Positions 9,844 through 60,845 of a stretch of DNA of 64,000 bases are shown here, in pieces; the stretch's first letter is position 1, and each line of letters starts with the position of its first letter. Source of the stretch: a bacterium (GTDB lineage Bacteria; UBP6; UBA1177). Made by a program: the position numbers and the translations under genes. The notes under the pieces are model-generated. The model was not told where the DNA came from, did not search any database, and worked only from the letters and a program-made list of their open reading frames with translations. Location: contig JAFYIZ010000028.1 in the NCBI GenBank assembly GCA_017538365.1, positions 52,962 through 116,961 of the forward strand. The letters run 5' to 3'.

Positions 9844-9918
9844 TGGCGACCCCTAGCGGATTCGAACCGCTGTTAGCGGCGTGAGAGGCCGCCGTCCTAA
9901 CCGCTAGACGAAGGGGTC
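9844..9918 (-). tRNA. tRNA-Glu (anticodon CUC)
   Basis: Reverse complement: GACCCCUUCGUCUAGCGGUUAGGACGGCGGCCUCUCACGCCGCUAACAGCGGUUCGAAUCCGCUAGGGGUCGCCA. It folds as a cloverleaf with acceptor GACCCCU/AGGGGUC, anticodon stem GCGGC/GCCGC and loop CUCUCAC. CCA is encoded. Close to canonical tRNA-Glu. Confidence 0.85.
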
Positions 9919-9932
9919 ATTGCATGAATAAG

Positions 9933-10006
9933 TGGATCCCGAACAAGGATTCGAACCTTGATTGACGGAGCCAGAATCCGTAGTCCTGCCATTGGACGAT
10001 CCGGGA
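9933..10006 (-). tRNA. tRNA-Gln (anticodon CUG)
   Basis: Reverse complement: UCCCGGAUCGUCCAAUGGCAGGACUACGGAUUCUGGCUCCGUCAAUCAAGGUUCGAAUCCUUGUUCGGGAUCCA. Acceptor UCCCGGA/UUCGGGA, anticodon stem ACGGA/UCCGU, loop UUCUGGC, T-arm CAAGG-UUCGAAU-CCUUG. CCA is encoded. Confidence 0.8.
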
Positions 10007-13391: not shown

Positions 13392-13541
13392 CGTTATTAT
13401 TCAGATAAATCACCGAAAGTAAATATAAACTGCGGATTTTGGAGACCTGAAAAAAGGAATGTGATTTTTGTTTATCTTTTATGTTTACAAATAATGTAAT
13501 TTCGCTAAAATAATGCGGCTTTTTTTTATGAGGAGAAAAAA

Positions 13542-14561
13542 ATGAAGTTTTCAGCTTTAATTTCAGTTTTGTTTCTTTCCTTCGTTTTTGTTGCCTGTGT
13601 ATCAGACGAAGATGAAGAAATGCGTTGTATCACCTCTATGGATTGTCCTGACGGTTATACCTGTGCAAATTCTGTCTGCCAGCCGCCGGTTGCTGCCGAG
13701 ACGGATGCTGATGCTCAGAATGATAATGAAACGCAAGATTCCGACACTTCTGTATCCCAAGACGATTCCGGCAGCGTAGATGCCGACAATGTTGTGTCGG
13801 GAGATGATGACGTTTCGCCGGTTGAAGATGACGATGTTTTGGATGATTCGGACGATTCAGATGATTCGACTGAAGAACTGCCTGATGACGTTTCTGCGAC
13901 CGACAATGACGTGGTTGATGAAACTCCTGACGAAGTTACTGTGCTGGAATGTCCGAACAACTGCAGTAATCACGGTGACTGTGACACAGCAACCGGAGTA
14001 TGCACCTGCACAGACAACCATGACGGTGCGGACTGTTCAGAGTGCAAAACCGGATATACGAACAACGGCGGCACATGTGTTCAGAAACAGTGCGACACAA
14101 ATAAATGTTGGACATCCCACAGTTGCACATATCCTATCAGCAGCATTTTTACAAGCACTGAAACTATTTATGCCCACGGAAATTGCGATAACAATACTGG
14201 TGAATGTCAATGTGAAAGCGGCTGGCTTACTGCCAATAACGGAACGGGGGAAACTTTAACCTGCGGTACGGATTATGAAACTTTCGAACCGTTTGAAACT
14301 CTTAACAACATTCAGTGCACAGTCTGCGACAAAAACAATCCGCCGTCACAATATGCTTCAACAGGCTGTCCGACAAACTGCCCGTCTTTGTTTTGCAGCA
14401 ACGCTTTGTTGATAGATACTGGTTCGGGCACCTGTTACTATGAACCTACCGGTTCCCACAGATTATATTGCAAATGTGCATCAGGTTATACGATAAGCGG
14501 CAGCGAATACTACGATGCAAATCCTATGGGAATGTGCAATTCTGAATCGTCTGGCGAATAA
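13542..14561 (+). CDS. Cys-rich secreted lipoprotein with an acidic stretch and EGF/tenascin-like Cys repeats
   Basis: MKFSALISVLFLSFVFVACVSDEDEE lipobox. Acidic D/S-rich linker. CSNHGDCDTATGVCTCTDNHDGADCSECKTGYTNNGGTCVQKQC. Confidence 0.55.
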   Translation: MKFSALISVLFLSFVFVACVSDEDEEMRCITSMDCPDGYTCANSVCQPPVAAETDADAQNDNETQDSDTSVSQDDSGSVDADNVVSGDDDVSPVEDDDVLDDSDDSDDSTEELPDDVSATDNDVVDETPDEVTVLECPNNCSNHGDCDTATGVCTCTDNHDGADCSECKTGYTNNGGTCVQKQCDTNKCWTSHSCTYPISSIFTSTETIYAHGNCDNNTGECQCESGWLTANNGTGETLTCGTDYETFEPFETLNNIQCTVCDKNNPPSQYASTGCPTNCPSLFCSNALLIDTGSGTCYYEPTGSHRLYCKCASGYTISGSEYYDANPMGMCNSESSGE

Positions 14562-14669
14562 CTCTCTGATTTAATTAAAAAACCCAAACATGTTTCTGCT
14601 TTTTTTATCGGTTTTAACAATCGGAAAACTATATTTCTGCAAAAAACAATCAAGGTTTTGAATTTTTTC

Positions 14670-14697
14670 TTGACCTTGAAAAATCAAGGTATATAAT
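14670..14697 (+). promoter_or_regulatory. Candidate lexA promoter (-35 TTGACC, 16-nt spacer, -10 TATAAT) overlapped by a perfect 7-4-7 palindrome ACCTTGA-AAAA-TCAAGGT; candidate LexA operator
   Basis: TTGACC at 14670-14675 and TATAAT at 14692-14697. Palindrome at 14673-14690. An extra TCAAGGT half-site lies at 14651-14657. lexA starts at 14731. Confidence 0.45.
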
Positions 14698-14730
14698 TGC
14701 CTGGATTTATGTTTTTTTGTGAGGTGAAAA

Positions 14731-15378
14731 ATGACAGTTTCAAGACAAAACGGACTTACCGAATCCCAGGCTAAAGTTTTGAAGACAGTTTCCGATTTTA
14801 TTGCTGAAAACGGCTATTCTCCGACCGCAAAAGAGATTTCCGAGATTCTGAACATTACGCAGACTTCGGTTTTCGAACAGTTGGAACGGCTTGAAAAAAA
14901 GAGGTATATAACCAGACAGAAAGGTGCCGCAAGAACTATCGGCATACTTAATCAGCCTGAAAATGAAAAGCCTGTTAAAAAAAGTGACTCTGTGAAACTT
15001 GTGAAAGTTCCGATCATCGGAACGATTGCTGCCGGTGCTCCGATTTTTGCAGACGAAAATATGGAAGGGGAGATCCTGGTCGATGAAAGCAACATCGGAA
15101 AAGGAAGGTTCTTTGCTCTCAGAGTCCGCGGCGACAGTATGATAAATGCCGGAATAAACAACGGTGATTTAGTCATAATAAAACGCCAGCCCCTTGCTGA
15201 AAACGGTGATATTATCGCTGCTTTGATTGACAGCGAGGCTACTTTAAAACGTCTTTCACTCAGCAACGATGAAGTTTTTCTGCTTCCCGAAAACGAAAAA
15301 TATTCTCCGATAAACGTTACCTGCCGTGAAGATTTCAAAATTTTAGGCAAAATGGTGACAACCGTAACGGTTTTGTGA
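14731..15378 (+). CDS. lexA: LexA repressor (SOS regulator, S24 peptidase)
   Basis: 215 aa. N-terminal winged HTH. Cleavage site AAG in VKVPIIGTIAAGAPI. FALRVRGDSMINAGINNGDLVIIKRQ (Ser nucleophile in GDSM) and GDIIAALIDSEATLKRL (catalytic Lys). Confidence 0.9.
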   Translation: MTVSRQNGLTESQAKVLKTVSDFIAENGYSPTAKEISEILNITQTSVFEQLERLEKKRYITRQKGAARTIGILNQPENEKPVKKSDSVKLVKVPIIGTIAAGAPIFADENMEGEILVDESNIGKGRFFALRVRGDSMINAGINNGDLVIIKRQPLAENGDIIAALIDSEATLKRLSLSNDEVFLLPENEKYSPINVTCREDFKILGKMVTTVTVL

Positions 15379-15425: not shown

Positions 15426-15454
15426 TAGCGGTTTTTTTGTGAGGTGTGAAAATT

Positions 15455-16924
15455 ATGAACAATTTTGTCAAGAGTTTATTCGTTTTAATTTTCCTTTCAT
15501 TCCAGTTGTTGCTCGTTGCCGAAGAAGCAGAGTCAAAAGAGGCTTCGACGCCTGCTGATGCGGTTTCTGCACAGTCGGATGAACAGAATCCTTCTGTCGA
15601 AAGTAAACCTGCCAAGAAGGATGACCGAGGTTTTGTTTTCGGTTCTTACGGCAGAGTTCAGCCTGCGACTGATCTTCGCGGAGGCTCTCCGAAGTGGGTG
15701 AATATAGTCGGTCACGGCAGCAGGCTTGAGCAAAGCAGCTATGTAGAACTCGATTTTGCTTATCTTCTCCCGCAGATTGGCGACAACGGTCCGAAGTTTG
15801 ACTTTGTTTCGACTCTCGCTTTTTCAGAATCGCTTTTTCACGATAACGGCAAATGGATCGCGCTGAATACGGTTAGAAACCTTTTTGTCAGAGCTGAAAA
15901 CGTTTTTGTAAAACCGCTCGGTTTCTGGGTTGGAAGCAGAATGTACCGCGGCGATGACATCTATCTCCTGGATTTCTGGCCTCTTGACGACGACAATATT
16001 TACGGCGGCGGCGTAACTCTTCACTTCGATGATTTTGCTCTTGAATACTATTTCGGTTTCAACCGTCTCGAAGTTGACTGGCAGTACCAGGAGCAGGAAG
16101 TCGTTTCAAGCACTTTCGGCTCAGAAAGCATAACATGGATGGACAGGCAGCGTATCGTTACCGGTCTCAAATATATGCAGAGATACAATGTTACCGAAAA
16201 AATAGGCTTGAAATGGAAGCTCATCGGTGAATTTCAGAGGATAAGTGCCGGTGAAAAGAGCAACGATCCTCTTGATGAGGACAATTCGATAGTTTATCCC
16301 GAAGATTTCGGCTGGTCGCTTGGCGCTCAACTGGGTCTTTTCGGCTATGCAAAGAACAGTTTTACCGATATTTTCTTCAAATACTCCGGAGGTCTTGCGG
16401 CTTACGGTCTCATGAGCGTTCCGTGGGGATTCGATTCAAAATACAAAACCAAGGATGCCAGAGAGATTCTTTTTGCAATTACATCCAATCTTGAAATCGG
16501 CTGGTTCGGCGCGATTTTCGGCGGTTATGTCCGTTCTTTCAGGGATTCAGACGGCAACAAATACGACAATGACGATTTTGTCGAATACACTTTTTCGCTC
16601 CGTCCGCACTTCTTTATCCATGAAAACTTCTATCTTGCTTTCGAAGTATCGCATCAGCTCAAGGATATGAACGGTCTGACAAATCTGAATAACGGCAAAA
16701 CCAAAAGCATTATGCCGCAGGTTACGAAATTCTCGCTTATTCCGATAGTTACTTACGGCGGCGGAAACTACGGCAGACCTCAGCTTCGTCTGGTTTACAC
16801 TCTTGCAGTTCAGAATGACGATGCCCGCTACTCCTACAACAAAGAGGATTTCCGTGCGAAACATTCCGTTCTTCATTATTTCGGTTTGAGCGCTGAATGG
16901 TGGTTCAATGTCGATCACAGATGA
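15455..16924 (+). CDS. Outer-membrane beta-barrel (porin-like) protein, function unknown
   Basis: Signal peptide MNNFVKSLFVLIFLSFQLLLVAEEA. Alternating aromatic/hydrophilic beta-strand pattern. C-terminal WWFNVDHR with a terminal aromatic region typical of OMPs. I chose the ATG at 15455 with RBS over the GTG at 15446. Confidence 0.55.
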   Translation: MNNFVKSLFVLIFLSFQLLLVAEEAESKEASTPADAVSAQSDEQNPSVESKPAKKDDRGFVFGSYGRVQPATDLRGGSPKWVNIVGHGSRLEQSSYVELDFAYLLPQIGDNGPKFDFVSTLAFSESLFHDNGKWIALNTVRNLFVRAENVFVKPLGFWVGSRMYRGDDIYLLDFWPLDDDNIYGGGVTLHFDDFALEYYFGFNRLEVDWQYQEQEVVSSTFGSESITWMDRQRIVTGLKYMQRYNVTEKIGLKWKLIGEFQRISAGEKSNDPLDEDNSIVYPEDFGWSLGAQLGLFGYAKNSFTDIFFKYSGGLAAYGLMSVPWGFDSKYKTKDAREILFAITSNLEIGWFGAIFGGYVRSFRDSDGNKYDNDDFVEYTFSLRPHFFIHENFYLAFEVSHQLKDMNGLTNLNNGKTKSIMPQVTKFSLIPIVTYGGGNYGRPQLRLVYTLAVQNDDARYSYNKEDFRAKHSVLHYFGLSAEWWFNVDHR

Positions 16925-18431: not shown

Positions 18432-19571
18432 ATGAAAAAACTGCTTTTTCTCCTCGCTGTTGCATTGATTTTTTCTTCGTGCGGCGGAGATTCAAAGTCA
18501 AATGAAGGCGGCGGGATGAGTACAAGCGACTTCTTTGAAAGGTATCTCGATACGCTCTGCAATGCTGCCACCAAGTGTAATTCAGGTTTCGTAAATGCGG
18601 AAAACCTTTCTTTCTGCCCTAAAACGATACTTAATTCAGCAAAGCCTTTCGAGGGTTTTCACAAAGGTGAATCGGTAATTTTCAAGCACAAATACGACAT
18701 GTTGAAGAATGCCGAAGAAATGGGTTGGCTTTCACTCAATACGGAGCAGGCTGAAAGTTGTTTCGCCGTTATCGCCCAGATGGAACCGTGCAATCCGCTC
18801 GATGTCCAGCTCCTTGATATTCCGGAATGCGCCAATGTTTTCAAGGGAACGAAACAAGTTAGAGAAGCATGCAATCAGGATGAAGAGTGTAAAAACGGCT
18901 GGTGCAATATGCGCGGCGGTATTTGTCCCGGATCATGCGTTGATTACAAGCAGCCTGATCAAAGCTGCAATTCATCGCTTGACAAGTGCGTTATCGGATA
19001 TGAGTGCCGTTCTTCCGGCTGTTCCAAATCAAGCTCCGGAGTCGTCAACGATCCGTGTGTAGACAACAGCGACTGCACGACTTTTCTTTTCTGCTACGTT
19101 AAAGAGGGTGATTCTTTCGGAGTCTGCCTCAAGAGAAAAGGTGAGGGCTTGGCATGCTCAACTGCTGATGAGTGTGTTGTCGGTCTGAGCTGTGTCAACA
19201 ATCTCTGCACCCGTTCGAGAGTCAGCGACACGGTTGGTGCTCCCTGCGGTGTTCAGGATGAAAAGGACGAAGACGGCAACGAAATAGTTCTTGAATGCAA
19301 CAGGTTCTCGAAACTTGAATGCAGTCTGGCGAACGTCTGCCAGAAAATGCCTACCTCTTCCAATCTGCAATGTGCCGAATTCTGCGATACTGATCTCGGA
19401 CTTGTCTGCGATTCATATTCGCATACCTGCCAATGGCCTAAAAGTGCAGTTAGCCCGTGCACAAGCAATGAACAGTGCGCCTCGCTTTACTGTGCTGCGG
19501 TTCCCGGAACAGAGGATCAGGAAATTATGATTTGTCAGGAGCCTCAGTGCCTGCCAATAAATGAAGAATAA
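18432..19571 (+). CDS. Cys-rich lipoprotein (about 40 Cys), hypothetical
   Basis: MKKLLFLLAVALIFSSCGGDSKSNEGGG. Numerous CxxxC/CxnC spacings. RBS aggagg lies within the lapB stop region. Confidence 0.55.
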   Translation: MKKLLFLLAVALIFSSCGGDSKSNEGGGMSTSDFFERYLDTLCNAATKCNSGFVNAENLSFCPKTILNSAKPFEGFHKGESVIFKHKYDMLKNAEEMGWLSLNTEQAESCFAVIAQMEPCNPLDVQLLDIPECANVFKGTKQVREACNQDEECKNGWCNMRGGICPGSCVDYKQPDQSCNSSLDKCVIGYECRSSGCSKSSSGVVNDPCVDNSDCTTFLFCYVKEGDSFGVCLKRKGEGLACSTADECVVGLSCVNNLCTRSRVSDTVGAPCGVQDEKDEDGNEIVLECNRFSKLECSLANVCQKMPTSSNLQCAEFCDTDLGLVCDSYSHTCQWPKSAVSPCTSNEQCASLYCAAVPGTEDQEIMICQEPQCLPINEE

Positions 19572-34959: not shown

Positions 34960-35105
34960 TATTTCCTCCTTAAAAAATAAAAAGAATCAACAAATTGCGC
35001 GCAATATTAGGAAAAAGCGGGAAAAAGGCAAAATTTTTGTTGCCTTTTTTATTTCAGGTATTATAAAGGCAGTGCTTTTGTTTTTTAAGGTTGTTAAGGG
35101 CTTTT

Positions 35106-36353
35106 ATGGAACTTGTTGAAAAACTTGAGATTTTGGGCGCTGCGGCAAAGTTCGACGCAAGCTGTTCGTCGAGCGGAAGCAGCAGAAAAGGTGTCGAAGG
35201 CGGCATCGGAAGCGCATACAGAGCCGGGATTTGTCACAGCTGGGCGGCTGACGGAAGGTGCATAAGTCTTCTCAAAGTTTTGTTCACGAACTACTGCATA
35301 AATGACTGTGCGTACTGCATCAACAGGCGCAGCAATGACGTAAAGCGGGCGACTTTTACGGTCGACGAACTTGTCTCGCTTACGATGAATTTCTACAAAA
35401 GAAACTACATTGAAGGGCTTTTTCTGAGTTCAGGTATCATAAAAAATGCCGATTTTACGATGGAAAAACTGATTGCCGTGGCGAAAAAACTGCGCAATGA
35501 AGAAAATTTTCACGGCTACATTCATTTGAAAGTGATTCCGGGAGCGAGCGATATTCTTATAAAAGAAGCTGGGCTATATGCCGACAGAGTTTCGGTAAAT
35601 ATCGAACTTCCTTCAGAAAAAAGTTTGAAACTGCTTACCGAAAAAAGCAAAGAGTCGATAATAAAACCGATGACTGACATTACTTCCGACATTGTTGAAA
35701 ACCGTGAAGAGAGGAGAAAAACAAAAAAACTTCCCATGTTTGCTCCCGCCGGGCAGACGACACAGCTCATTGTCGGTGCTACGCCCGAAACCGACCGGAA
35801 AATAGTGAAACTGACCGAGGCTTTTTATAAAAAATTCAGCATGAAAAGGGTTTACTACTCGGCCTTCGTGCCTGTAAATTCCGACAACCGTCTCCCGATT
35901 GTTTCGATGCCGCCGCTCGACCGCGAACACAGGCTCTATCAGGCTGACTGGCTCATGCGCTTTTACGGTTTTCAGGCTGACGAAATCGTAACGGAGGAAA
36001 ATCCGTTCCTTTCCGACGACATTGATCCGAAGGCTGTCTGGGCCATGCGGAACATGCACCTGTTTCCGCTTGAAATCAACACGGCGGCGTTCGAAATGAT
36101 TCTGCGCGTGCCTGGAATAGGGAGAAAATCGGCTTTCAGAATAATTTATGCTAGAAAAAACGGCTCGCTCGATTTTGACGACCTCAAAAGAATCGGCGTT
36201 GTCCTCAAAAGGGCGCGCTATTTCATCACCTGCAAAGGAAAGATGATGGCAGACACGATCATTGCAGAGCTGACAGTTTTCGAAGCGATGAAAACGACCA
36301 GCACTAAAGCCGGGGCTGTTGACCACACTTACGAGCAGCTTTTACTCTTTTAA
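35106..36353 (+). CDS. Putative DNA modification/repair radical SAM protein (TIGR03916-like)
   Basis: MELVEKLEILGAAAKFDASC. CINDCAYCINRRSND (CxxxCxxC). Confidence 0.6.
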   Translation: MELVEKLEILGAAAKFDASCSSSGSSRKGVEGGIGSAYRAGICHSWAADGRCISLLKVLFTNYCINDCAYCINRRSNDVKRATFTVDELVSLTMNFYKRNYIEGLFLSSGIIKNADFTMEKLIAVAKKLRNEENFHGYIHLKVIPGASDILIKEAGLYADRVSVNIELPSEKSLKLLTEKSKESIIKPMTDITSDIVENREERRKTKKLPMFAPAGQTTQLIVGATPETDRKIVKLTEAFYKKFSMKRVYYSAFVPVNSDNRLPIVSMPPLDREHRLYQADWLMRFYGFQADEIVTEENPFLSDDIDPKAVWAMRNMHLFPLEINTAAFEMILRVPGIGRKSAFRIIYARKNGSLDFDDLKRIGVVLKRARYFITCKGKMMADTIIAELTVFEAMKTTSTKAGAVDHTYEQLLLF

Positions 36354-36357
36354 AACA

Positions 36358-37119
36358 ATGATTTTTATTTACGACAGCACATTTGAAGGTTTTCTGAGCG
36401 CGGTTTTTGACGCTTTTCCGGTAAAAGAAGAGGTCTCGATTGAAAAAAAAGATTGCTGGCAGCCGCTTCTTTTCGCCGAGCCTGTTGAAGTCAAAACAGA
36501 GCCCGAAAAAGCGGAAAGAGTTGCGGAAAAACTTCTTTCGATATGCGGGCATCGCGGATTTTCGGCGATAGTCCAGATCTTTCTTTCGGAAGCTGAAGGG
36601 TGCGAAACGGCTGCGTTTTACCTGATAAAATCGGTGATAAAATACGGTTCGAAGTCGTTTTCGCGCTTTCAGGATGAGAAAATTACCCACGCAATGGAAC
36701 TCAGAAAAAAAGTTTCCAAAGAGTGCGACAGATTTTTGGGAATTCTGCGCTTTTCGGAGCTTTCAAACGGCGTTTTCTACGCTCCGTGTGAACCAGATCA
36801 CAACATTATTCCGCTAATTGCCGGTCATTTTTACGAGCGTCTTTTGGGAACAAAGTGGATGATCCACGATCTCAGGCGCGGATTTGCCCTCTATCACAGC
36901 AATGGCAATATGGAAAATGTTGAATTTATTGATGAATTAACCTCTCACTTGAATATGGCGAATCTCTTGGGAAAGTCCGAAAACGAAGAAGATTTCGCCG
37001 AAATGTGGTGCCGCTACTTCAAAACCATTGCCATTGAAACCCGCATAAATCCTAAATTACAGAGGCAGTTCATGCCGCAGCGTTACTGGAAATACCTGAC
37101 TGAAAAGAAAAACGGTTAA
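36358..37119 (+). CDS. DUF4130/TIGR03915-like probable DNA metabolism protein (partner of the radical SAM gene)
   Basis: MIFIYDSTFEGFLSAVFDAF N-terminus, typical of this family. Overlaps the upstream gene. Confidence 0.5.
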   Translation: MIFIYDSTFEGFLSAVFDAFPVKEEVSIEKKDCWQPLLFAEPVEVKTEPEKAERVAEKLLSICGHRGFSAIVQIFLSEAEGCETAAFYLIKSVIKYGSKSFSRFQDEKITHAMELRKKVSKECDRFLGILRFSELSNGVFYAPCEPDHNIIPLIAGHFYERLLGTKWMIHDLRRGFALYHSNGNMENVEFIDELTSHLNMANLLGKSENEEDFAEMWCRYFKTIAIETRINPKLQRQFMPQRYWKYLTEKKNG

Positions 37120-47386: not shown

Positions 47387-47483
47387 TGGCAGCGCGGCGG
47401 CTATAAAAAAATTTGATAAAATTTATTCTTGTTGTTATAAAGCGGCGTTTTTTTTGTTTTTACTTAATTTTTTGGAGTCAGAG

Positions 47484-49094
47484 ATGAAGAAATTTTTCGT
47501 ACTTACGGCTTGTCTTGTTGCCATGATTGCATGCGGAAACGGTCACGACGTGATGATGCAGAAAATGGAAGAGGCTGCTGAAAGAAACAAAGCCTATCAC
47601 GAGGCTGAAGAGGCAAAAAAGAAAGAAAAACCGAAATTCGTAGATGATGAAATCAAAGAAGAGCTCCCTGCGATCGTAGACGCGGCTGCAAAAGGCAACC
47701 TTGCGGCTGTAAAAGCTGAAATCAGCAAGGGAACTCTTGTCGATACTAAGGACGGACGCAGCAGAACGGCTCTTTACATGGCTGCTTCTGAAGGTAAAAA
47801 AGATGTTGCAGACTACCTCATCGAAGAAGGTGCAAACGTCAACACGAAGCGCGATGACGGCGACACTCCGCTTATGGCTGCTGCAAGAAAAGGCGACAAG
47901 GAGATCGTTGAGGCACTTATAAATGCGAAAGCCGATATTGCTCAGGCAGACAATTTCGGCAGAACTCCGCTTATGATGGCTGCTTCCAGCGGTTCGAAAG
48001 AGCTTGTTGACTATATGCTTGCAAACGGTGCAGACCTCAATGCAACTGACAAATACGAGCTTTCGGCTCTTATTTTCGCGATGAAGGCTCACAAGATGGA
48101 TCTTGCGAAATATCTGCTCAGCAAAGGCGCGAAGGTATGGAAAGCGAAACCTCTCGTAATCAAGGAAAAACCCCTTGTCCTCAAGATCGAAGGCAAAGTT
48201 CAGCCGGGAATGGAAGAAGTTATCGAAAATCTTGACAAGAAAGATGTTCATCTCCGCCAGAAAACCGAGCTTTTCTACGCAGTTGAAACGGGCGATCTCG
48301 ACCTTGTCAAACTTCTTGTACAGAAAGGATCTCCGGTTCTCGTAGACGATGTCGAGCAGAGCAGGGAAACGATAATTTATGAATTCGGCGGAGGCAAGGA
48401 AGAAGAACGCGATATGCTTTTCCAGAGAAAGATCACGAGAACTTCTTACGACCGCGACCAGAAAAACCTTCTTCACTACGCTGCTGAAGGCGGATATGTC
48501 GATATCATGAAATTCCTCATTTCCAAAGGCGCAAGACTTGAAGAGACCGACGGCGAAAACGTCAGAGGTCCGCTTTTCTACGTCGTAGCTCAGGAAGTCG
48601 ACCCGAAAGATCCGGGCAAAGAGGCGAGACTCGTTGCAACGGCTGATTACATCATCGAAGAAGGCAAAAAGACCTGGACGAAGAGAGTCAGACTTACCAA
48701 AAAAGAACTCGACAAGATGAGAGAGAAAGAAAAAGCTAAAAACTGGTGGGAAAAGAACCCGTTCGATACCGAATGGAAAGATGTCACCGCTCCGAAAGTC
48801 GACATTGAAGAATACGATTACGAAGGCTGGCATGTTCTTGCTCTCGCTGCAAAATACGGTCACACTGACATCGTTAAACTTCTCATAAACAAAGGCGCTA
48901 ACATCAACCACAAAGAGAGAAAAATGGGTAACACCGCGCTTATTTACTCGAGAGTCGGCAAATTCAAAGAGATGGAAAAATTCCTTCTTGAACACTGTGC
49001 GAAAGAGGGAATCAACTTCGATCACGAAGAGCTTGCAAAACAGGGCTGGAAATGCGTTGATGGAAAAGAAGTTTTCGAAAAGCCTGCCGAATAA
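47484..49094 (+). CDS. Ankyrin-repeat lipoprotein
   Basis: MKKFFVLTACLVAMIACGNG lipobox. Multiple ANK repeats (DGRSRTALYMAASEGKKDVADYLIEEGANVNTKRDDGDTPLMAAARKGDKEIVEALINAKADI...). Confidence 0.65.
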   Translation: MKKFFVLTACLVAMIACGNGHDVMMQKMEEAAERNKAYHEAEEAKKKEKPKFVDDEIKEELPAIVDAAAKGNLAAVKAEISKGTLVDTKDGRSRTALYMAASEGKKDVADYLIEEGANVNTKRDDGDTPLMAAARKGDKEIVEALINAKADIAQADNFGRTPLMMAASSGSKELVDYMLANGADLNATDKYELSALIFAMKAHKMDLAKYLLSKGAKVWKAKPLVIKEKPLVLKIEGKVQPGMEEVIENLDKKDVHLRQKTELFYAVETGDLDLVKLLVQKGSPVLVDDVEQSRETIIYEFGGGKEEERDMLFQRKITRTSYDRDQKNLLHYAAEGGYVDIMKFLISKGARLEETDGENVRGPLFYVVAQEVDPKDPGKEARLVATADYIIEEGKKTWTKRVRLTKKELDKMREKEKAKNWWEKNPFDTEWKDVTAPKVDIEEYDYEGWHVLALAAKYGHTDIVKLLINKGANINHKERKMGNTALIYSRVGKFKEMEKFLLEHCAKEGINFDHEELAKQGWKCVDGKEVFEKPAE

Positions 49095-60092: not shown

Positions 60093-60845
60093 TTGGAGGA
60101 AATTATGGCTTTGAAGCTTAGAGGCGCAAGAAAAGCTAAGAAAAAAGAGCTTGAAACGGCGGCAAATATCGTTGAAAATGACGCTTTTCAGGAGCAGGGG
60201 AAAAAGGTTGTTCTCGAACATCCTTACTTTATTTTCGGTTGTGTTGCAGCGATCGTTGTTGTTGTTATTGTCGCAATGCTTATTTCGACTGCTGTAAAAT
60301 CGGCATCAGATGCAAAATCGCTTGAATATGCCGCAGCGACGGAACTTCTTGACAAGGCTGACGATGACTCGTCGGAAAACGCTAAAGCAACTTACGAGCA
60401 GGCTCTTGCCGCTTTCGACAAAGTTATAAAAAATCAGTCCGGTTCGATGAATGCGGCTGCTTCAATGGTATTTTCAGGTCGTATTTACAAAGAAAGCATG
60501 AACAACTGCGACAAGGCGGTTGATTTCTTCAAACAGGCACGCACTAGCGGAAAACTCAGCACCGATGTCCGCTTTGTAGCTTACGAAGGCGAGGCAATGT
60601 GCTACTTCGATAAAGGCGATTACGAAAAAGCTGTTGATCTCTGGAAGGAATGGCTCAATCAGAAAACCGATATCTATAAGGATTACGCGCTTTACTACAC
60701 CGGCATGACCTATGAAAAACTCGGAAAAGCCGATGAAGCGGCTGTTTATTACAACAGATTGAAAGACGAATATCCGAAGAGCCTTCTTCTTGCAAAAATC
60801 ACGGGCAAAGTTACAACAAAAGAGCCTGAAAAAGCACAGAATTAA
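60093..60845 (+). CDS. Membrane-anchored TPR-repeat protein (YfgM-like)
   Basis: 250 aa. Single transmembrane helix FIFGCVAAIVVVVIVAMLI, followed by TPR-like repeats. Stop overlaps the next start (taATG). Confidence 0.4.
   Translation: MEEIMALKLRGARKAKKKELETAANIVENDAFQEQGKKVVLEHPYFIFGCVAAIVVVVIVAMLISTAVKSASDAKSLEYAAATELLDKADDDSSENAKATYEQALAAFDKVIKNQSGSMNAAASMVFSGRIYKESMNNCDKAVDFFKQARTSGKLSTDVRFVAYEGEAMCYFDKGDYEKAVDLWKEWLNQKTDIYKDYALYYTGMTYEKLGKADEAAVYYNRLKDEYPKSLLLAKITGKVTTKEPEKAQN

Follow-up and report, generated by a model that had tools for sequence, protein, structure and literature searches.

A candidate LexA operator with a CCT-N10-AGG core on the lexA and radical SAM repair promoters of an uncultured ruminant-gut/digester lineage

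The lexA gene in a 64-kb stretch of DNA from an uncultured bacterium (64,000 nt; the window, hereafter) is preceded by a perfect palindrome that lies across its promoter. LexA repressing its own promoter is a textbook mechanism, and autoregulation through an operator on the lexA promoter is close to universal. The locus raises the question of whether this palindrome is the operator of LexA and, if it is, which of its bases the protein would recognise. A sequence-only reading of the window had proposed that the palindrome may define a lineage-specific SOS box. We followed up this proposal by comparing lexA promoters, a second promoter of the same genome and the LexA proteins themselves.

The open reading frame at 14731-15378 (plus strand, 215 aa) matched the LexA equivalog TIGR00498 with 186 bits (cut-off 111). 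It carried the Pfam domains PF01726 (LexA_DNA_bind) and PF00717 (Peptidase_S24) and showed full-length similarity to solved LexA structures. By these family, domain and structure matches, the gene product is a genuine, canonical LexA. In the protein alignment, the Ala101-Gly102 cleavage site and the Ser136/Lys173 dyad were invariant, so that normal RecA-triggered inactivation would be expected. The recognition helix of the window protein reads T-S-V-F-E-Q-L-E-R-L-E-K-K. The gene neighbourhood differs between LexA clades. Where LexA is 58-64% identical to the window protein (L086, L176, L001 and L167-169), a conserved tRNA gene is divergent from lexA and lies ~100-190 nt upstream; in the clade of the window, other genes replace this tRNA neighbourhood. 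The window contains two tRNAs, which are its sole Rfam matches (9847-10006, minus strand).

A promoter scan placed a near-consensus promoter ahead of lexA, with the −35 hexamer TTGACC at 14670-14675, the −10 hexamer TATAAT at 14692-14697 (both plus strand) and a 16-nt spacer between them. This promoter scored 11/12, and no alternative candidate was present within 14540-14760. The palindrome (ACCTTGAAAAATCAAGGT, 14673-14690) is a perfect 7-4-7 inverted repeat made up of ACCTTGA (14673-14679), AAAA (14680-14683) and TCAAGGT (14684-14690). It covers the −35 box and the spacer, 41 nt 5' of lexA. The sequence-only reading had described this repeat and a TTGACC-16-TATAAT promoter beneath it, ahead of a lexA gene, and the sequence, the promoter scan and the TIGR00498 and Pfam matches agreed with it on each point. 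A dyad-symmetric site thus overlaps the lexA core promoter, the arrangement expected of a LexA autoregulatory operator. The last two bases of the −35 hexamer are the first two of the left CCT (14674-14676), and the −10 hexamer lies 2 nt past the right AGG (14687-14689), or 1 nt past the AGGT arm.

By itself, the palindrome is not statistically unusual in the window. When spacers of 0-10 nt were allowed, 60 perfect inverted repeats with 7-bp arms were counted, against ~47 in shuffles; with a 4-nt spacer there were 4, against ~5. The heptamer TCAAGGT occurred in 9 copies (7.9 expected). Any significance of the palindrome comes solely from where it lies, on the lexA promoter, and from comparative evidence. 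Downstream of the promoter, an identical 15-nt leader (TTTTTTTGTGAGGTG, with a U-run and a GAGGTG Shine-Dalgarno) precedes both lexA (14712-14726) and the next gene (15432-15446), which encodes a LamB-family porin with a likely ATG start at 15455. The porin promoter (TTGACAACCTTATAAATACTGCTAATAT) has a single ACCTT left half-site and lacks a right arm.

We performed footprinting on the contigs of graded metagenomic LexA homologues, whose upstream regions were read and aligned. Eight box-bearing lexA promoters were recovered (the window, L083, L084, L086, L176, L167, L177 and L172), from genomes of 37-56% GC that encode LexA proteins 49-100% identical to that of the window. The CCT-N10-AGG spacing was invariant in 8/8 of these promoters, which were counted as independent, yet those of close relatives are not fully so. 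The −35 hexamer TTGACC was likewise the same in all eight. The upstream regions read TTGACCTTATAAATTTCAGGTATATAAT in L083 (LexA identity 90%), TTGACCTTTAAAAATCAAGGTATACAAT in L084 (80%), TTGACCCTTACATTTTTCAGGTATATGAT in L167 and L001 (64%), TTGACCCTTATTTTTGTTAGGTCTATAAT in L176 (59%), TTGACCCTTGTTTTTGTCAGGTATAAAAT in L086 (58%), TTGACCTTTCATTTGTAAGGTCTATAAT in L177 (56%) and TTGACCTGCGATAATTCAGGTATAATAAT in L172 (49%; 56% GC). We observed that only CCT(T/G)-N8-(A/C)AGG(T) was common to the eight promoters, and that the eight inner bases were A/T-rich and had diverged. The inner arms already differed where LexA was 80-90% identical (ACCTTATAAATTTCAGGT and ACCTTTAAAAATCAAGGT); the inner TGA/TCA symmetry of the window operator is particular to this genome. 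L177 has a perfect ACCTT-N8-AAGGT and L172 a perfect ACCTG-N8-CAGGT, the latter standing ahead of a lexA-imuA-imuB-dnaE2 operon. The aligned upstream regions contained no other conserved dyad, and DNA beyond the box was unrelated. The putative operator is best read as ACCTK-N8-MAGGT, with CCT-N10-AGG as its core.

Outside this set, the box was degenerate or missing. L170, whose LexA is 56% identical, had only a degenerate CCA-N10-AGG. As a negative control, we used the lexA promoters of distant LexA proteins (35-45% identity) from Actinobacteria, Firmicutes, Ignavibacteria, Treponema, Rokubacteria and others; among the matches listed, 0/37 had the box near lexA. Many of the Firmicutes and Actinobacteria promoters in this control set had GAAC-N4-GTTC instead. 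L179 and L180, Planctomycetaceae relatives of the box-bearing P0116, also lacked a CCT-N10-AGG box, so the motif is not general to the wider clade. Both carry a conserved TTCCTGTAATTATACATCC (TGTA-N4-TACA) ~70 nt upstream of lexA and have imuA-like and imuB genes 3' of lexA. The SOS response of the PVC group has been called undocumented (PMC4951493). In a clade with 45% identical LexA, L174 and L178 have another perfect palindrome on the lexA promoter, TGTTCACTA-TATTCG-TAGTGAACA, ~25-50 nt upstream of lexA (locus position ~9950-9975), which may be another undescribed box. In L174 and L175, lexA adjoins a Mu-like prophage.

Besides lexA, the window has only one DNA-repair operon (35106-37119, plus strand). 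Its first gene (35106-36353) encodes a putative DNA modification/repair radical SAM protein (TIGR03916, 635 bits; cut-off 343.5); the ORF finder began it at TTG 35091, and ATG 35106 is the likelier start. The second gene (36319-37119) encodes the TIGR03915/DUF4130 partner, a putative DNA repair protein (229 bits; cut-off 112). Annotation of the 64-kb window gave no recA, uvr or dinB genes, and the flanks of the lineage loci examined contained no recA, uvrA or dinB. The promoter of the operon reads TTGCCTTTTTTATTTCAGGTATTATAAA, with the −35 hexamer TTGCCT at 35040-35045 and the −10 hexamer TATAAA at 35062-35067. It carries a second candidate LexA operator (GCCTTTTTTATTTCAGGT, 35042-35059) of the form GCCTT-N8-CAGGT. 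Exactly two copies of CCTT-N8-[AC]AGGTA occur in 64 kb, one on the lexA promoter and one on this promoter. A motif at another DNA-damage gene of the same genome, which the sequence-only reading had suggested looking for, was found in the form of the relaxed core and not of the full 18-mer.

We then compared 80 orthologous radical SAM loci taken from metagenomes, 70 of them from other lineages. The close orthologues (84-91% identity) kept TTGCCTT.TTTATT.MAGGT in 7/7 cases, with CCT 61-72 nt before the start codon, and their DNA beyond the promoter was unrelated. CCT-N10-AGG was present upstream of the gene in 7/7 lineage loci, compared to 2.1% of random segments. The loci of other lineages carried GAAC-N4-GTTC (≤1 mismatch, ≤200 nt upstream; typically CGAACATATGTTTG) in 42 of 70 cases, compared to 6.4% of random segments. 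These comprised 14 exact sites and 28 with one mismatch, for which random 200-nt segments gave 0.9% and 5.5%, respectively. LexA regulation of the radical SAM operon has been published for Verrucomicrobia and inferred for Bacteroidetes (PMC4951493, PMC8565304). The classical LexA boxes in other phyla, together with this literature, make the operon an independent marker of LexA control. In this lineage, CCT-N10-AGG is the predicted operator that replaces the classical box on the operon.

Other repeats were observed near the radical SAM promoter. A perfect 10-bp inverted repeat at 35022-35049 (AAAAAGGCAA-N8-TTGCCTTTTT) ends within the −35 hexamer and was flagged as a terminator-like element of the minus strand at a place without a gene end. 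In L090, the arms of this type of repeat are split by an insertion of ~60 bp. The repeat was not conserved in relatives and was left out as a part of the operator. In L087, L088 and L092, tandem TCGAAAT(A/T)-type repeats (e.g. GTCGAAATTTCGAATATCGAAATATCGAAATGTCGAC), which are absent from the window, lie ~70-150 nt upstream of the radical SAM gene.

Neither promoter carried any of the following published LexA boxes. CTGT-N8-ACAG had a single match in the window (60742-60757), at neither the lexA nor the radical SAM promoter. GAAC-N4-GTTC had five sites, none of them near lexA or the radical SAM operon. TGCNC-N4-GTGCA had zero matches in the whole window, and TGTTC-N4-GAACA was also absent from it; GTTC-N7-GTTC and TTTG-N5-CAAA were absent from the lexA and radical SAM promoters. 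The earlier description of the lexA palindrome as non-canonical, made with respect to CTGT-N8-ACAG, the Gram-positive box and TGCNC-N4-GTGCA, was thus correct.

We assessed the specificity of the motif with two matrices: a symmetrised 24-bp combined matrix built from 11 sites and an 18-bp matrix rebuilt from six lexA sites only, as a guard against circularity. The lexA operator was the best match in the window with both (26.3 bits and 21.9 bits, respectively). When 349 kb of lineage DNA was scanned with the combined matrix, all matches of at least 17.9 bits were lexA or radical SAM promoters, and the next match scored 14.2 bits. The same matrix gave one match of at least 17 bits in 1.91 Mb of unrelated loci. 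With the lexA-only matrix, the radical SAM promoter ranked second in the window at 14.8 bits. Scores of at least 14.8 bits were reached at 4 of 1.91 million background positions, or ~0.13 expected per window, and the chance of such a score in the 146-nt radical SAM intergenic region was ~3 in 10,000. The radical SAM promoter site was the best match in 5/6 orthologous loci; in L092 it came second (14.8 bits) to a nearby 5'-UTR site (15.5 bits). The radical SAM sites reached moderate scores with the lexA-only matrix (14.8-16.7 bits vs 21.9 bits for lexA).

The third-ranked match of the lexA-only matrix in the window (ACCTGAAAAAAGGAATGT, 13445-13462; 14.1 bits) lacks the right AGG and is probably due to chance. 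This match is intergenic, flanked by two divergent genes: a 649-aa gene on the minus strand and the gene of a cysteine-rich EGF-like secreted protein (13542-14561). The EGF-like protein belongs to the proteins of the window with eukaryote-like domains (47454-49094, 13542-14561, also 18432-19571), which comprise an ankyrin-repeat protein of 546 aa and secreted, cysteine-rich proteins of the EGF-like/Dickkopf_N-like type; such a content is unusual for a gut bacterium. Viral contigs were also scanned with a promoter-plus-operator pattern, and these scans were discarded as evidence; the match numbers were near a rough chance estimate. About 50 IMG/VR viral contigs (L184-L301; e.g. L238, 9345-9374) contain a strictly conserved TTGACCTTT[A/C]TATAGAAAGGTATATAAAGA. 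This phage-family site, a perfect palindrome of up to 9+9 with the core CCT-N10-AGG, is directly upstream of a 221-aa protein with a weak match to phrog_1409.

The conserved bases could belong to a promoter only. The palindrome would then be a chance feature of an A/T-rich spacer to which no repressor binds, and the conserved TTGACC and AGGTnTATAAT would mark a strong promoter of the sigma-70 type whose −10 element is extended upstream in a lineage-specific way. This explanation is compatible with the chance frequency of perfect 7-bp inverted repeats and with inner arms and a third half-site that are not conserved. With the left arm running into the −35 hexamer and the right arm adjoining the −10 hexamer, some of the conservation could be that of the promoter itself. 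However, the radical SAM box is shifted by 1 nt against its −35 and −10 hexamers relative to the lexA box, while the distance from CCT to AGG is the same. Across the box promoters, the −35/−10 spacing varies while CCT and AGG stay 10 nt apart. In addition, the −35 hexamers TTGACC and TTGCCT deviate from TTGACA exactly where CCT falls, precisely so that CCT stays. The fixed distance, the shifted box and the −35 deviation argue for an operator superimposed on the promoter and not for a promoter element.

Further observations weigh against a promoter-only explanation. The copies of AGGTAT in the window are mostly intragenic, which does not fit a general promoter feature, and no other site exceeded 14.2 bits in the 349 kb of lineage DNA. 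The extended −10 element is TGn, and AGGT at −17 to −14 fits no known extended −10 element. The box is also limited to two kinds of promoter, those of lexA and of an operon known from the SOS response, and its presence tracks the recognition helix of LexA. These data make it unlikely that the palindrome is simply part of a promoter.

The protein alignment bears on which protein binds. Box-bearing LexA proteins had the common helix S-V-x-E-Q-[LM]-x-R-L-E. Altered helices accompanied degenerate boxes in P0111 (SVHEQL) and P0232 (SVRDQV); P0176 (SIFKQVERLE) and P0119/P0117 (GVKRHIDALV) had other palindromes and no box. The helix of E. coli LexA, AAEEHLKALA, differs from that of the box-bearing proteins. 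The presence of the box thus co-varied with the recognition helix. This co-variation, the position on the lexA promoter in all members of the clade, the lexA-imuAB-dnaE2 operon and the recurrent SOS operon together point to LexA, which is likely the protein that binds the palindrome.

Another dimeric regulator, or a dedicated sigma factor, could instead use a real operator here to co-control lexA and the radical SAM operon, in which case LexA would bind elsewhere or nowhere. Such a regulator would be compatible with our data insofar as the identity of the binding protein is deduced and no further candidate LexA site is required. Against it, the lexA upstream regions contain no second conserved dyad, and the occurrence of the box tracks LexA clade and recognition helix and not the general relatedness of the genomes. 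In L172, the box stands ahead of lexA-imuA-imuB-dnaE2, and LexA autoregulation is nearly universal. A sigma factor is further disfavoured by dyad arms merely 8-10 bp apart, unlike −35 and −10 elements. We consider control by another regulator improbable.

It is very improbable that the 18-bp ACCTTGA-N4-TCAAGGT in its entirety, helped by cooperative binding to a third half-site, forms a species-specific box, as its perfect symmetry in this genome and an extra TCAAGGT 34 bp upstream might suggest, because LexA proteins 80-90% identical, with (near-)identical helices, have other inner arms and no third half-site, because the radical SAM operator of the same genome lacks TGA/TCA, and because the window holds no other copy even with 3 mismatches. 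A scan with this 18-mer, which the sequence-only reading had recommended, returned only the original site in the 64-kb window whether matches were exact or allowed ≤3 mismatches; the full motif is therefore not a regulon motif. The extra TCAAGGT does exist, at 14650-14656 (plus strand) and not, as first reported, at 14651-14657, and its proposed role in the operator found no counterpart, being absent from the aligned lexA upstream region of every relative. It is probably a chance occurrence or a recent local repeat; AATCAAGGT is present twice.

Overall, our data suggest that LexA probably uses the palindrome as the operator for repression of its own gene. The LexA box of the earlier reading thus gained comparative support that makes a LexA operator very probable, with CCT-N10-AGG and not the 7-4-7 repeat as its determinant. 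A LexA dimer would place one winged-helix domain on each arm and recognise CCT(T/G) and (A/C)AGG(T), the arms being held 8 bp apart over an A/T-rich spacer. LexA bound at the operator would exclude RNA polymerase, given that its site reaches into the −35 hexamer on the left and up to the −10 hexamer on the right. DNA damage would free the promoter by way of RecA-stimulated self-cleavage of LexA, in which Ser136/Lys173 cut at Ala101-Gly102. With this operator on its promoter, the radical SAM/DUF4130 operon would belong to the same small SOS regulon as lexA, and we infer that both lexA and the operon are repressed by LexA and damage-inducible. The locus would thus be an SOS switch of the ordinary, self-regulating kind whose recognition sequence is uncommon.

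These findings would provide a usable, cross-validated SOS-box model for a heavily sampled uncultured ruminant-gut/digester lineage, from which its DNA-damage regulon would be predictable in MAGs, and they tie a recognition-helix signature to a DNA motif. They also support the idea of a conserved core of SOS networks, made up of translesion cassettes and the radical SAM/UDG-type repair operon.

The closest known system is that of the magnetotactic coccus MC-1 (Magnetococcus marinus), where CCT-N10-AGG is reportedly the LexA box, as defined by site-directed mutagenesis. This box is said to control lexA and umuDC, and not recA or uvrA. At the level of the motif, the core is identical here, with CCT and AGG 10 nt apart on the lexA promoter. 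The regulon appears small in both: lexA and umuDC in MC-1, and in the present case lexA together with a repair operon or in the form of lexA-imuAB-dnaE2. The hosts differ, the box occurring here in an uncultured ruminant-gut/digester lineage and a GC-rich relative and not in Magnetococcus. In these hosts the consensus extends to ACCTK-N8-MAGGT and is always merged with a TTGACC −35 hexamer. Of the lineage-specific SOS box first proposed, the non-canonical character stands; the box is probably a new occurrence of the known CCT-N10-AGG type and not a new type. This would be a second, phylogenetically remote occurrence of a box type that is not otherwise known beyond one magnetotactic bacterium. 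A tentative possibility, which we regard as doubtful, is that the window LexA represents an uncharacterised LexA subfamily (helix S-V-x-E-Q-L-x-R-L-E, recognising ACCTK-N8-MAGGT) distributed over several uncultured lineages of 37-56% GC, the match to MC-1 reflecting either lateral spread of lexA with its operator or convergence. If true, this subfamily and Magnetococcus would form a clean test case for the evolution of LexA motifs. The range of the proposed subfamily comprises an abundant ruminant-gut group and a relative carrying lexA-imuAB-dnaE2.

The SOS box of E. coli and of Beta- and Gammaproteobacteria is CTGT-N8-ACAG. Compared to the E. coli LexA-DNA structure (3JSO), the box described here has the same layout of two 4-bp arms and an 8-bp A/T-rich spacer (4-N8-4). 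The two systems also have in common the winged-helix dimer, an operator over the lexA promoter and the Ala-Gly/Ser/Lys self-cleavage module. They differ in the bases of the arms (CCTK here, CTGT in E. coli) and in the recognition helix (TSVFEQLERLE here, NAAEEHLKALA in E. coli). The Fibrobacter succinogenes LexA box is reportedly TGCNC-N4-GTGCA; it is likewise a lineage-specific LexA palindrome on the lexA promoter, with a different motif that is absent here. In other phyla, the Gram-positive (Cheo) box GAAC-N4-GTTC governs this radical SAM/UDG-type repair operon as well as lexA; it differs from the present box in arms and spacing and is found at neither promoter of the window. The LexA regulon of Verrucomicrobia (TGTTC-N4-GAACA) comprises lexA, imuA-imuB-dnaE2 and radical SAM repair genes, including an operon of a radical SAM gene and a uracil-DNA-glycosylase-domain gene (PMC4951493). 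Its core gene content is similar to that of the regulon predicted here, whereas its motif is different.
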